A stretch of 64,000 nt of DNA from a bacterium (lineage in GTDB: Bacteria; Pseudomonadota; Alphaproteobacteria; Acetobacterales; Acetobacteraceae). The DNA lies in the NCBI GenBank assembly GCA_026224825.1, contig JAMFRO010000093.1, forward strand, positions 4,946 through 68,945. Reading direction: 5' to 3'. Under the pieces are notes generated by a model, which worked only from the letters and a program-made list of their open reading frames with translations, searched no databases and was not told where the DNA came from. This document shows, piece by piece, positions 15,641-19,905 of the stretch (position 1 is its first letter; each line of letters starts with the position of its first letter). The position numbers were made by a program, and so were the translations under genes.

Positions 15641-15777
15641 AGGGAAGGAAGGCCAAGGGGCTTCGCCCCGTCGTGCGAATGCACGCCTCCGGCGTGACGA
15701 CCCCCACCAAGGGCCGAAGGGCCCTTGGATCCCACCCGGCATAGTAAAGGGGGGGAGGCCCCCTGGCCTTTTTCCTT
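15641..15777. repeat. palindromic mosaic element, copy E (core-less solo form)
   Basis: Terminal inverted AAGGAAGGCC / GGCCTTTTTCCTT. GC hairpins ggggcttcgcccc and gggggggaggccccc. Contains the 32-nt gtcgtgcgaatgcacgcctccggcgtgacgac motif and the caagggccgaagggcccttg hairpin, both shared with copies B, C and D. Confidence 0.7.
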
Positions 15778-15786
15778 GCTAAGGCT

Positions 15787-16347
15787 TTACCCGGCGATGA
15801 AGCCGCGCGGGCGGGGCCAGAACAAACCAGCGCGGGTGCGGTAGGCGGCGTAGGCGGCGGCGAGTTCGGAGTTGGCAAATTTGCGTTCCTCGCGGGTCGC
15901 TGCATCCAGGTACAGGGTTGTCATGATGGCTGGTGCCAGCCAGCCGGCGAGGCTGGGGGTGGCTATGGCGGTGCCGAACCAGAACAGCACGTAGGCCAGA
16001 TAGAACGGGTGGCGCACGTAGCGGTAGGGGCCGTGGTTGAGCAGGAAGTTCGGGCTGTCGTTGTCATAGGCGAGCGTTGGCGGTGTGCTGCGGCTGGCGA
16101 TGATGGCCGAGGCGAAGACCGCGAGCGAGGCCGTGAAGAGCACGAGGGCCGGGAGCCAAAGGCTGGAGGCGCCGTAGTGCAGGTGCCAGAGGAAGGCGAT
16201 GAACAGCGCGGTTGAGAGGCCGGTGGTGAGTTTCATGCCGGGTGGCATGTCGCCGGTGGAGCGGAAATGCGCTTTCACGCCCCAGCCGAAGGCGGCGAAG
16301 CAGATGGTGGCGTCAAAACCGGTGAGGATGGAAAAAAGAACGTGCAT
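15787..16347 (-). CDS. isoprenylcysteine carboxyl methyltransferase (ICMT/PEMT) family membrane methyltransferase
   Basis: Polytopic 186-aa protein with the family core HGPYRYVRHPFYLAYVLFWFG ... REERKFANSELAAAYAAYRTR. Confidence 0.7.
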   Translation of the reverse strand: MHVLFSILTGFDATICFAAFGWGVKAHFRSTGDMPPGMKLTTGLSTALFIAFLWHLHYGASSLWLPALVLFTASLAVFASAIIASRSTPPTLAYDNDSPNFLLNHGPYRYVRHPFYLAYVLFWFGTAIATPSLAGWLAPAIMTTLYLDAATREERKFANSELAAAYAAYRTRAGLFWPRPRGFIAG

Positions 16348-16377
16348 TTGTCTAAGCCTTTTCGAATGAGGTGGGAT

Positions 16378-17124
16378 TTATTCGGAGAGGAAAACGTTGA
16401 CGGCGTCGCCGGCCAGCAGGCTGGTGTAAGTCTCCAGCGTGCGGGGATCGGCGCCGACGACGGGGATTTCTTCCCGGATGCGGTCGAAATTGGCTTCCGG
16501 GCAGGCCATCAGGTTTGTTTCGAATTTTACGCCTGCGTAGCGGCGCGGCCCGGCGACATATTCAAAATGCATGCGGCGGTAGAACGGCGAGTGGTTCTTG
16601 CGCACGCAATTCAGCATCATGTCGGCGCTTTTGACGTGAAGCATGTAGGACACAAAACGGAACAACACGAAAACAAGTTCGAAATCGGTGGCGTAGTCGG
16701 GGTGGCGCACCAGCCGGTTTATTTCCATCATGCGTGCCGGCCGGCCGTGAGAGATGCTCGCGGCCAAAGCTGAGACGTCTTCGGGGAATATGCGCGAGGC
16801 CGGGATTTCATCCCAGCCGATTAGGCCGGGTGTGAGATCCAGCACGCACATGCGTACCGAGGCGACAGGCCGGCCATGTTTGTAGATGACGACGCATTGG
16901 GCATTTGGCTTGGCGTCGTCGGCATCCGAGAACAGCGCCTCGGGCAGTGGATCGATAAAACCGCCGGAGAGGTAGCTGAGATAGCGCACGCTGTAGGAGT
17001 CGTTGCGCGTTTGCTCATCCAGGGCGAGGCGCGCGGTGAGCCCCGTATGTCCGAGTCGCTGACGAGCCCCGCCGCGAGCCCGGCTTGGTGTGACGACTGG
17101 TGTGACTAACTGTAAAGAACTCAT
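16378..17124 (-). CDS. FeeM-like N-acyl amino acid synthase (LuxI/GNAT-fold acyltransferase)
   Basis: Start at MSSLQL, preceded by AGGAG. Family-like blocks SVRYLSYL, MEINRLVRHPDY and VRKNHSPFYRRMHFEYVAGPRRYAGVKFETNLM. Assigned by recollection of the family pattern, not by a search. Confidence 0.5.
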   Translation of the reverse strand: MSSLQLVTPVVTPSRARGGARQRLGHTGLTARLALDEQTRNDSYSVRYLSYLSGGFIDPLPEALFSDADDAKPNAQCVVIYKHGRPVASVRMCVLDLTPGLIGWDEIPASRIFPEDVSALAASISHGRPARMMEINRLVRHPDYATDFELVFVLFRFVSYMLHVKSADMMLNCVRKNHSPFYRRMHFEYVAGPRRYAGVKFETNLMACPEANFDRIREEIPVVGADPRTLETYTSLLAGDAVNVFLSE

Positions 17125-17493
17125 TAAAAATCTCCTGATTGCAACCAAAGAGGGTAAATTAGTAACCCTCTCATCCCCAAGATGTAGAGGTAAATTTGAT
17201 TACGAACGGGAAATATGTCTTAAAAGCTCCCGCCAACCCTGGTTCCGATAGCTGCGGAAGTTTACATTTGATTTGAAGAATGGCTTGCAAATCATTGGTT
17301 TTGCCGCCTCATCTGCCGGTCTCAAGATTTGGAGCGATTTGACCAATGTGAATCGCAACCGAAAAAAAATTTTTCAATGCATCGTTTGGCCGGCAACTAA
17401 TGCTAACCTGGAGTGGACGAGCATTTTTATGTTAGGTTGTATTGTACGCAGGCTGTCTAAGGAGACGTCCGGAAGCGGAGAGGTGTTCAAATT

Positions 17494-19905
17494 TTGAGGA
17501 AAATCTCACACGACTCGACTCGCGGCAGGGCTAAAGGCGCTTTCAGTTTCAGGCGGGTAATGGCCGTACTTCTTGGAGATTTGAGGCGCATCGCCTCCGG
17601 TGTTGCGGTGCCGCCGGAGCTGGCTGAGCGGTTGCAGTTCGACCAGGCGGGTGATTTCAGCTATATCATGAGCGCCATCTCATTTCTGGGAATCAGTACG
17701 GTCAGCCTGCTTGCCGTCGATTTTTACGGAAGTTCCGATGCGCTGTTCCGCGGGCTGGATATGGTGGCTATCCTCGCCAGTTATGCCTTAATCCTGGTGC
17801 GTTGCCGCTCATGGCTACAGGGAAGCAAGACGGCAGGTGGCGATGCGATGCGATATTTCGCAGGGATGATCCGGCTGTTGCTCATCCTGGGCTTTTTCTG
17901 GTCCGTGCTACTCATCATGTTGATGCGCGACCATAATGTTGGCCAACTTTGCCTGCTTTACGGTGTCATGGTCGGCTGCCTGGCAACACCGGTGATGGTG
18001 TCGCCAATGGCCTGCGCTTTCGCTTATTGGTTGCCCGTCGCGTTAGGCGTCTGTGTGGCCGGGTTTTTTGCGGGCACCATCGAGCGCTTTGCCCTCACCG
18101 AGCTTATGTCATTCATCGGGCTCACGGGCTTTTGTATCGTCTACCTTAACCGGCGCCTCAACGAGCGCGCCATCGGCGCCATCCGGCTGGAGGAGAATGC
18201 CGCGGTCATCAAGCTTTTGCTCCGCGATTTCGAGGAGAGCGCTTCGGACTGGCTGTGGGAGACCAATGATGAGCTGCGGCTGGCACCTGTGAGCCAACGC
18301 CTGGCGCAGGTGGCGCGCCGCCCGGTGGAGAGTTTCTCAGGCACCTTCCCCGCGGCATTGCTGGGGGACACCGGCCAGGAGAACAGGCCCGGTACGGCCC
18401 CAGGCCTGGCGTGGGGCCGGCTGAACCGTGCCATCGCCGAGCGCTCGCCCTTCCGCGATATCGTGGTGCCGGTGCAGGTCGCCGGCGAGGAGCGCTTCTG
18501 GTCCATCACCGGCAAGCCTATCCTGGACAAGAAGGGCAGGTTTGCCGGCTATCACGGGGTGGGGTCGGACATCACAGGCCAGCGCCGCCAGCAGGAGCAG
18601 ATCTCCTTCCTCGCCCGGCACGACAGCCTGACCAAGCTCGCCAACCGCGTGCTGTTTTCCGAAACCCTGCATCAGGTCTGCGACAATTGCGAGGCCACGG
18701 GGATCGCGCTGCTCTGCCTCGACCTCGATAATTTCAAAACCGTCAACGACACTCTGGGCCATGCCACGGGCGATGCCGTGCTGGTGGCGGTGGCCGAGCG
18801 CATTCGCGGCTCCATCCGCGAGCTGGATATGGCGGCACGGCTGGGCGGCGACGAATTCGCCGTGATCGTGGTGACCGAGGAGGTCGAGGAGGCCGTGCAT
18901 GTGGCGCGGCGCATCATCGAGCGCATCGCCCGGCCGTTCCATTTCGATGGCCAGCTCGTTCAAATAGGCATGAGTGTCGGCATCACCATGGCCCCGGCCG
19001 ACGGCAAAACGCCCGCCGTGCTGCTGAAGAACGCGGACCTCGCCCTGTACCGCGCCAAGACCGAGGGGCGCGGTGTGGCCCGGTTGTACGATCCCGAGAT
19101 GGATGAGCGCGTGCAGGAGCGGCGCATATTGCAGGCGGCCTTGCGCCGGGCCGTGGCGCGGGGGGAATTCGTGCTGCACTACCAGCCGGTTATCGACCTG
19201 CCCACCGGGCGTATCACCGGGGCCGAGGCGCTCATCCGCTGGCAGCACCCGGAGCGCGGCCTGCTGGCGCCGGGCGAGTTCATCGGCATGGCCGAGGAGA
19301 CCGGGCTGATCGTGGAGATCGGCGAATGGGTGCTGCGCGAGGCCTGCGCCCGCGCCGCCGCCTGGCCGGTGCCGGTGAGCATCGCCGTAAACCTCTCGCC
19401 GCTGCAATTGCGTGAGGATACGCTGGTGGCAACCGTGGCCGAGATATTGGAAACCTCCGGGCTGGCGGCCTCGCGGCTGGAGCTGGAGATCGTCGAATCC
19501 GTGATGCTCGACCATACCGCCCAGACCGAGGAGGCGTTGTGGAGCCTGCATGAGCGCGGCGTGCGAATCGCCCTCGACGATTTTGGCACAGGCTATTCCT
19601 CGCTCTCCTATCTGCGCCGCTTCCCCTTCGACAAGATCAAGATCGACCGCTCCTTCATCCGTGACCTAGGCTATGAGAAGGACGACAGCTCGATCATCCT
19701 GGCCATCATCGGCCTGGCTGAGCGCATGAATATGGTGGTGACGGCCGAGGGTGTGGAGAACACCGAGCAGGCCGGGCTGCTGCTCTCTTATGGCTGTGCC
19801 CAGGCGCAGGGCTATCTGTTCCATCGGCCGCTGCAGGAGGAGGTGTTCATCCAACTGCTCCTCAAGGTGCAGGCCGCGCAGGAGAGCCCCGCCGCCGCCC
19901 AATGA
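17494..19905 (+). CDS. membrane-bound PAS-GGDEF-EAL c-di-GMP turnover protein
   Basis: About 6 N-terminal TM helices, a PAS-like region, an intact GGDEF (RLGGDEFAV), and EAL signatures (EALIRW, DDFGTGYSSLSYL, KIDRSF). The ORF-track start is TTG and the true start is uncertain. Confidence 0.85.
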   Translation: MRKISHDSTRGRAKGAFSFRRVMAVLLGDLRRIASGVAVPPELAERLQFDQAGDFSYIMSAISFLGISTVSLLAVDFYGSSDALFRGLDMVAILASYALILVRCRSWLQGSKTAGGDAMRYFAGMIRLLLILGFFWSVLLIMLMRDHNVGQLCLLYGVMVGCLATPVMVSPMACAFAYWLPVALGVCVAGFFAGTIERFALTELMSFIGLTGFCIVYLNRRLNERAIGAIRLEENAAVIKLLLRDFEESASDWLWETNDELRLAPVSQRLAQVARRPVESFSGTFPAALLGDTGQENRPGTAPGLAWGRLNRAIAERSPFRDIVVPVQVAGEERFWSITGKPILDKKGRFAGYHGVGSDITGQRRQQEQISFLARHDSLTKLANRVLFSETLHQVCDNCEATGIALLCLDLDNFKTVNDTLGHATGDAVLVAVAERIRGSIRELDMAARLGGDEFAVIVVTEEVEEAVHVARRIIERIARPFHFDGQLVQIGMSVGITMAPADGKTPAVLLKNADLALYRAKTEGRGVARLYDPEMDERVQERRILQAALRRAVARGEFVLHYQPVIDLPTGRITGAEALIRWQHPERGLLAPGEFIGMAEETGLIVEIGEWVLREACARAAAWPVPVSIAVNLSPLQLREDTLVATVAEILETSGLAASRLELEIVESVMLDHTAQTEEALWSLHERGVRIALDDFGTGYSSLSYLRRFPFDKIKIDRSFIRDLGYEKDDSSIILAIIGLAERMNMVVTAEGVENTEQAGLLLSYGCAQAQGYLFHRPLQEEVFIQLLLKVQAAQESPAAAQ

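Follow-up and report, generated by a model that had tools for sequence, protein, structure and literature searches.

The CqsA/CqsS system of Vibrio and the LqsA/LqsS system of Legionella each place a synthase gene beside the gene for a receptor, which senses a hydrophobic autoinducer through a six-transmembrane (6-TM) domain. The RpfF(Bc)/RpfR system, which uses the Burkholderia diffusible signal factor (BDSF), was reportedly described by Deng et al. in 2012. RpfR of Burkholderia cenocepacia is a PAS-GGDEF-EAL receptor that is encoded beside the signal synthase RpfF(Bc) and also binds that synthase (PMC12838280). N-acyl amino acid synthases of the FeeM type, most of them from environmental DNA, have been known since 2000. 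What they do in the producing cell is unclear (PMC4897644). The enzyme family of FeeM has already been linked to cyclic di-GMP (c-di-GMP) through N-acyl amino acid synthases that are fused to PilZ. The locus considered here lies in a 64,000-nucleotide stretch of an Acetobacteraceae genome (assembly GCA_026224825.1, contig JAMFRO010000093.1), referred to below as the window, and consists of three adjoining genes: those for a FeeM-family synthase, an integral-membrane methyltransferase, and a membrane protein with PAS, GGDEF, and EAL domains. A literature search found no paper describing this three-gene module and none combining FeeM with GGDEF; the module is a so far undescribed form of synthase-receptor signalling.

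On balance, we lean towards reading the three genes as one module in which a self-made lipid signal is wired to c-di-GMP. As with RpfF and RpfR, the synthase gene is genetically linked to a c-di-GMP enzyme, in this case by adjacency, co-occurrence, fusions, and mirrored trees. The two systems are alike in that the gene for a synthase of a (here presumed) fatty-acid-derived signal lies beside the gene for a PAS-GGDEF-EAL protein, the receptor or its candidate, with c-di-GMP turnover as the output. Moreover, RpfR contacts its synthase, and among the relatives of the window module a pathway enzyme is fused to the proposed receptor in some lineages. They differ in the fold of the synthase (FeeM/LuxI-type GNAT in the window, crotonase in RpfF), in the signal (presumably an N-acyl amino acid, possibly methylated, as opposed to a cis-2-enoic acid), and in the receptor (soluble in the case of RpfR, integral to the membrane and equipped with a 6-TM domain of its own in the window's candidate); the window module also has a third partner, the methyltransferase. 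CqsA/CqsS and LqsA/LqsS share with the window module the placement of a synthase beside a multi-pass (6-TM) membrane protein. In contrast to c-di-GMP in the window module, their output is a histidine kinase phosphorelay, and their synthase is a pyridoxal phosphate-dependent acyl-CoA transferase that makes an alpha-hydroxyketone signal.

The synthase gene (16378..17124, minus strand, 248 aa) belongs to Pfam family PF21926 and is separated by 30 nt from the downstream methyltransferase gene (15787..16347, minus strand, 186 aa), whose product is assigned by Pfam PEMT and its predicted fold to the S-adenosylmethionine (SAM)-dependent membrane methyltransferases of the ICMT/PEMT type. The PAS-GGDEF-EAL gene reads away from both on the plus strand (17494..19905) and encodes 803 aa from a TTG at 17494 or 781 aa from an ATG at 17560; the protein-database copy is the 781-aa form. 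An earlier note, made from the letters of this DNA and a list of its open reading frames, had given the same coordinates for all three genes, the same 30-nt gap, an AT-rich divergent region of about 370 bp, and about six transmembrane helices in the PAS-GGDEF-EAL protein, and had called the two enzymes FeeM-like and ICMT/PEMT-like; all of this agrees with the measurements and profile and fold matches given below.

The comparison of gene order rests on a PF21926 search of 201 genomes of the window's family, from which 24 strong loci were fetched; with the window's own these make 25. Triads of FeeM, methyltransferase, and sensor-GGDEF-EAL genes occupy 14 of the 25 loci (a 15th is broken by a contig end), six loci are FeeM and sensor-GGDEF-EAL pairs without a methyltransferase, and at the remaining four FeeM has no adjoining sensor protein. 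The synthase-methyltransferase pair on which the earlier note was built is conserved, but the constant pair is FeeM and sensor, the methyltransferase being found in 18 of 23 genomes. The same operon appears on a 733-kb metagenome contig with independent gene calls, and Acidocella aminolytica DSM 11237 (locus L008), a type strain in culture, has the full triad. Acidocella and related Rhodospirillales are the nearest genomes, and the Acidocella-type loci show the same triad in the order mutS, GGDEF-EAL, divergent FeeM and methyltransferase, rpmJ. Compared with loci L002-L012 and L058, the whole three-gene block is turned round in the window; it lies between mutS and rpmJ there and at the Acidocella loci. 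Next to mutS is the methyltransferase gene in the window, but the GGDEF-EAL gene at the Acidocella loci and also in a genome of the window's own genus (G098). No long inverted repeats, a possible cause of the inversion, were found flanking the module.

The three genes are co-directional in most distant genera and divergent in other clades. The FeeM stop and the methyltransferase start overlap by 4 nt at no fewer than eight loci. Protein fusion also occurs: loci L043 and L051 encode in-frame methyltransferase-sensor-PAS-GGDEF-EAL proteins in which an Arg-rich linker follows the methyltransferase. These two loci belong to different subclades of the FeeM tree, so the fusions arose independently. 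Fusions of PEMT/ICMT with PAS-GGDEF-EAL also occur in six full-length database clusters (955-990 aa) and two partial ones, all recovered with the 6-TM profile. The topology of the fused proteins is coherent, with a cytoplasmic methyltransferase C-terminus, six transmembrane helices, and a cytoplasmic PAS-GGDEF-EAL portion.

Among the 201 family genomes, 23 have both FeeM and the 6-TM domain, none has FeeM only, two have the sensor only, and 176 have neither (Fisher p = 3e-28). The 6-TM domain, searched with a profile of alignment A1, is present in 25 of the 201, and the two exceptions without a strong FeeM score weakly. The methyltransferase subfamily, searched with a profile of alignment A2, scores 197-258 bits in 18 genomes and at most 57 bits in all others, and all 18 fall inside the FeeM set. 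About 11% of the family genomes carry the module, and its presence can differ within a genus: five genera include one species with the whole set and another with none of it. Genus g45 retains all three genes, although they are hundreds of kilobases to megabases apart. FeeM paralogues number two to four in some genomes, two of which also have two sensor proteins; the window's own genome has a single gene with a PF21926 match above the cut-off. In a sample of 401 genomes of the class, one genome from another family has a strong FeeM match and the 6-TM domain gives weak matches (27-44 bits); a phylum-level sample gives 37-74 bits for that domain. Beyond the family, no gene for FeeM or the methyltransferase lies within 1.5 kb of the distant 6-TM homologues, and no GGDEF-EAL gene adjoins the FeeM matches of about 50 bits in other families of Alphaproteobacteria. 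Word-index searches with all three proteins returned Acidocella-type relatives only and say little of distant taxa.

The trees divide the module into an older and a younger part. A well-supported FeeM clade of 22 comprises all members linked to a methyltransferase, the dispersed genes of g45, and L045, which represents one secondary loss of the methyltransferase inside the clade. FeeM-sensor pairs that lack the methyltransferase branch below this clade, from which it follows that the methyltransferase was added once. The synthase and sensor are therefore the core, and the methyltransferase is a later addition of single origin. The tree of the 6-TM domain has the same major clades as that of FeeM. 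It is very improbable, and was already disfavoured, that the enzymes and the GGDEF-EAL protein are joined by conserved synteny without any direct functional link. Neighbours can persist by descent, and the clear cases all come from one bacterial family; set against this, the order changes between clades from divergent to co-directional, in the window the module is turned round as a whole, overlaps and fusions join the genes, gain and loss within genera affect them jointly and all are kept when dispersed, and FeeM is essentially never missing where the methyltransferase subfamily or the sensor domain occurs.

The synthase scores 94.4 bits against the Pfam FeeM family PF21926 (cut-off 27), and its AlphaFold model, made with 28 homologues, has a pLDDT (predicted local distance difference test score) of 89.8. 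The best matches of this model in a Foldseek search of the Protein Data Bank (PDB) are the chains of FeeM 2G0B (E 8e-12, TM-score 0.75-0.81 on target, 0.80 for the best match), and the N-acylhomoserine lactone (AHL) synthases BjaI, EsaI, LasI, and MesI rank after them (TM-score 0.56-0.65). A sequence search of the PDB with the synthase returned nothing at E<=10, and FeeM was found by the fold search alone. The protein is a member of the FeeM family with a predicted FeeM-like GNAT fold that is nearer to FeeM than to the AHL synthases. Nine residues are invariant in the 28 homologues: R47, Y51, D67, D70, R91, E134, H178, Y182, and R184. E134 sits in a strand motif of the form ExxR (MEINRLV). The active-site glutamate is Glu95 in FeeM and Glu103 in Nas354 (PMC4897644). 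Motif and strand position, rather than a residue-level superposition, suggest that E134 is the equivalent of Glu95.

Three other classes of synthase were considered and rejected. No Pfam family other than PF21926 matches the protein at E<=0.1, and this includes both the LuxI-type AHL synthases (Autoind_synth, PF00765; the genome's real LuxI/LuxR pair lies on contig C31) and the OlsB and hm-NAS N-acyltransferases (Acetyltransf_5, PF13444). No NCBIfam family matches at E<=0.1, which would also set aside the synthases associated with PEP-CTERM and exosortase, provided that their model, which we take to be TIGR03694, is in the library. The acyltransferase accordingly groups with neither OlsB, LuxI, nor PEP-CTERM-linked synthases by Pfam and NCBIfam. 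In the family-wide FeeM search, a class of open frames of about 300 aa that score only 20-25 bits is putatively OlsB-like. With FeeM itself the window synthase shares its Pfam family and fold and, if E134 corresponds to Glu95, a conserved catalytic-type Glu in an ExxR(L/F) strand, although in a structural alignment the two are only about 14% identical. It differs from known FeeM-type systems in that a PilZ domain and fee-type tailoring genes are missing and that the NCBIfam scan gave no hit pointing to exosortase; its constant partner is instead the membrane GGDEF-EAL protein. The C-terminal tails of FeeM proteins from methyltransferase-less loci likewise have no PilZ or other domain.

The methyltransferase is a member of the ICMT/PEMT membrane superfamily by profile, fold, and cofactor motifs. 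It scores 37.7 bits against Pfam PEMT (cut-off 25) and 22.2 bits against ICMT, just under the cut-off of 24. Its model (pLDDT 92.8) has as best PDB match the ICMT Ma-ICMT 4A2N (TM-score 0.66/0.61), followed by eukaryotic ICMT. With ICMT (Ste14; Ma-ICMT 4A2N), PEMT, MddA, and LmtA it shares a five-helix membrane fold and the RHPxY and EE cofactor motifs, and GPYxxVRHPFY and EE are invariant in 17 orthologues. It differs from them in falling far under every curated equivalog cut-off and in having motifs of its own, WGxxxHF and a near-invariant Arg86. The NCBIfam isopcys_mtase model gives 29.7 bits against a cut-off of 160, and the MddA and LmtA models are similarly low; the enzyme is therefore placed in a separate subfamily. 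The sequence does not decide which atom is methylated; ICMT-fold enzymes also carry out N-, S-, and phosphate-methylation. The minimal substrate of ICMT is an N-acyl amino acid that carries a lipid, N-acetyl-S-farnesylcysteine, which makes a methyl-ester product chemically reasonable, and an N-acyl amino acid methyl ester is a plausible product of the window gene pair as judged from the two families.

The preference of the methyltransferase for the PEMT profile bears on a different account of the locus, in which the enzymes would supply the membrane with an aminolipid in bulk, such as an N-methylated lipid of the N-acyl ornithine or lysine type that is useful at low pH, and the GGDEF-EAL protein would be a homeostatic membrane sensor. 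PEMT is a family of lipid head-group N-methyltransferases, the methyltransferase and the 6-TM domain are both embedded in the membrane, and acidophiles like Acidocella and Acidiphilium are numerous among the carriers. We nonetheless consider an envelope lipid improbable: the acyltransferase is FeeM/LuxI-like rather than OlsB-like, the patchiness of the module within the family fits an accessory signalling function better, and the multiple FeeM paralogues of some genomes, with two sensors in two of them, are as in private signal systems.

The PAS-GGDEF-EAL protein has six hydrophobic segments within residues 57-218, and the N-terminal 6-TM domain that contains them, the proposed lipid-sensing part, spans residues 40-236 (17611..18201, plus strand). 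No Pfam family matches this domain at E<=10; Y97, W107, W136, and P181 are invariant in it. It is followed by a juxtamembrane motif, LLRDFEESASDWLWETN, and a PAS domain (18217..18588, plus strand; PAS_4 at residues 248-365), a GGDEF diguanylate cyclase domain (18613..19071, plus strand; Pfam GGDEF, 147.7 bits), and an EAL c-di-GMP phosphodiesterase domain (19135..19830, plus strand; Pfam EAL, 249 bits). The juxtamembrane motif, LLRD(F/Y)EExxSDWLWET(D/N), is nearly invariant in 23 orthologues, and the GGDEF motif is intact in all 23. An RxxD site lies five residues upstream of GGDEF, in the sequence RELDMAARLGGDEF. The EAL-domain motifs of the window protein are all intact (EAL, NLSP, ELEIVE, DDFGTG, KID, EGVE, and QG), and they are nearly invariant in the 22 of 23 orthologues that have the domain, the L071 protein being truncated and without it. 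The EAL tripeptide varies in two orthologues (ETL, EGL), and the other motifs show a few single substitutions. With its catalytic motifs intact, the window protein would by these motifs be both a diguanylate cyclase and a phosphodiesterase. A search of 1.84 billion cluster representatives with the 6-TM profile returned 366 proteins, 59 of them at E<=1e-30. In one distant homologue (P0316, 956 aa, about 60 bits) the domain is carried by a multi-PAS histidine kinase, as a sensor module might be, and so it may feed further kinds of output as well. The 6-TM domain could be a new lipid-sensing input module.

The proposed circuit has three steps. From its family, the FeeM-type enzyme would be expected to move a fatty acyl group, probably from acyl-acyl carrier protein, onto the amino group of an amino acid to give an N-acyl amino acid. 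Where it is present, the ICMT-fold enzyme would then methylate this amphiphile with SAM, most likely at the free carboxylate to give a neutral methyl ester, the alternative being N-methylation of a basic head group. The lipid would enter the membrane and be detected by the GGDEF-EAL protein, through its 6-TM domain or the PAS domain next to it, shifting the balance of c-di-GMP synthesis and breakdown and, with it, traits such as biofilm formation or motility. For this sensing step the argument is one of comparative genomics and analogy. The earlier note had tentatively put forward the GGDEF-EAL protein as the responder, and that candidacy has become the best-supported part of the finding through the near-perfect co-occurrence, the operon coupling, the fusions, and the mirrored trees. 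Taken whole, a private, quorum-sensing-like circuit of the Acetobacteraceae, in which FeeM and the ICMT-fold enzyme make a methyl ester that the 6-TM domain reads and that drives c-di-GMP, is a tentative proposal and a rather doubtful one in all its parts together.

Several points weigh against a signal of this kind acting on c-di-GMP. All strong examples come from one bacterial family, and shared ancestry inflates the raw co-occurrence statistics, although the contrasts within genera and the dispersed g45 genes argue against pure inheritance or inertia. Adjacent genes that are inherited together would mirror one another's trees without any co-evolution of ligand and receptor. The methyl-ester step is a guess, since the best Pfam match of the methyltransferase is to an N-methyltransferase family, PEMT, with ICMT under the cut-off. 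Genomics does not fix the direction of control, and the synthases that are fused to PilZ point to c-di-GMP as a regulator of the synthase. In that reversed arrangement, the GGDEF-EAL protein would sense some other cue and local c-di-GMP would turn on or off the production of a surfactant or membrane lipid of the N-acyl amino acid kind, an effect that could be exerted through physical contact between methyltransferase and sensor. The methyltransferase-sensor fusions suit such a complex of enzyme and regulator, RpfR binds and inhibits its synthase, and the PilZ fusions provide a precedent within the synthases of N-acyl amino acids. Reversed control is nevertheless thought unlikely: no PilZ or other c-di-GMP-binding domain can be recognised in FeeM or the methyltransferase of the window, the methyltransferase is entirely missing from the basal pairs, and it is left unexplained why the part of the sensor protein that tracks FeeM is the 6-TM input domain.

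The divergent spacer (17125..17559, no strand) holds the control regions of both transcription units and measures 369 bp to the TTG start or 435 bp to the ATG start. It is AT-rich, with 45-47% G+C as against about 60-70% in most of the flanking DNA. AGGAG precedes the ATG of the synthase. In eight Acidocella-type loci about 70 nt upstream of the FeeM start (17125-17200 in the window) are conserved, as GTTACTAAT...TTTTGGTTGCAA...AGGAG, and may be a leader or an operator; the blocks ACAACCTTACGTAAC and TATCATTAATTG are conserved in the same loci toward the GGDEF-EAL side. An Rfam scan of the spacer gave no match, and a promoter scan of it gave no sigma-70 consensus match and nothing credible. 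A terminator-like hairpin (15751..15763, minus strand), identified by a consensus scan alone, lies between the 3' side of the methyltransferase gene and mutS.

Nine loci of one subclade have a fourth conserved gene, a small open reading frame that lies immediately upstream of FeeM and is read from the opposite strand. It has a core of about 70 aa with the motif RSRSYWHGWRNG, matches no Pfam family, and is absent from the window. The nine copies are at L043:6329-6898, L044:6696-7004, L045:6470-6796, L048:7863-8171, L051:4000-4281, L053:6218-6505, L057:6747-7046, L059:6832-7131, and L061:6975-7352; among these are the two FeeM-only loci of genus g45. Broken copies of the module genes also occur: FeeM is split into two frames in G186 (L037, G186:C1:1741390-1741889), the GGDEF-EAL gene is split into two open reading frames in L003 (3122-5532) and L061 (8657-11039), and the truncated GGDEF-EAL protein of G021 (L071:8178-9716) has 512 aa and no EAL domain. 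The copies in L037, L071, L003, and L061 may represent decay (pseudogenes) or sequencing errors. FeeM paralogues of about 32% identity are found on three Acidiphilium plasmids (pACRY02 of A. cryptum JF-5 and two of A. multivorum). The pACRY02 copy (L092, 146712-147503) has an integrase and a toxin-antitoxin pair as neighbours, and neither a sensor nor a methyltransferase gene is beside it.

The window's genome also encodes a canonical pair of LuxR (Autoind_bind) and LuxI (Autoind_synth) elsewhere (G000, contig C31:4204-5511), so the FeeM module is an additional system. The earlier note's remark that no LuxR-type gene is present holds for the three genes, to which no such gene lies adjacent (the rest of the window was not scanned), but not for the genome. 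Methyl esters of N-acyl alanine and other N-acyl amino acids are known from Roseovarius tolerans and other roseobacters (PMC11580390, PMC6296433), and as of 2024 no candidate synthase genes were known for the compounds of R. tolerans (PMC11580390). A literature search found no later gene assignment for these compounds, and the earlier note was right, as of that paper, that they lacked assigned genes. They are of the compound class that would be expected of the window gene pair; their producers, in contrast, are Roseobacteraceae, and strong FeeM matches are rare outside the window's family in the class sample.

The family Acetobacteraceae includes acidophiles as well as the cellulose producers in which c-di-GMP was discovered. 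The presence of the full triad in a cultured type strain, A. aminolytica DSM 11237, makes experiments feasible, and the co-inheritance of a dedicated c-di-GMP enzyme gives the FeeM-type synthases a testable role in the cell. If the proposed circuit is correct, the module would provide the first genes for methyl esters of N-acyl amino acids, the first physiological role for FeeM-type enzymes, and a new lipid-sensing input domain for c-di-GMP enzymes.

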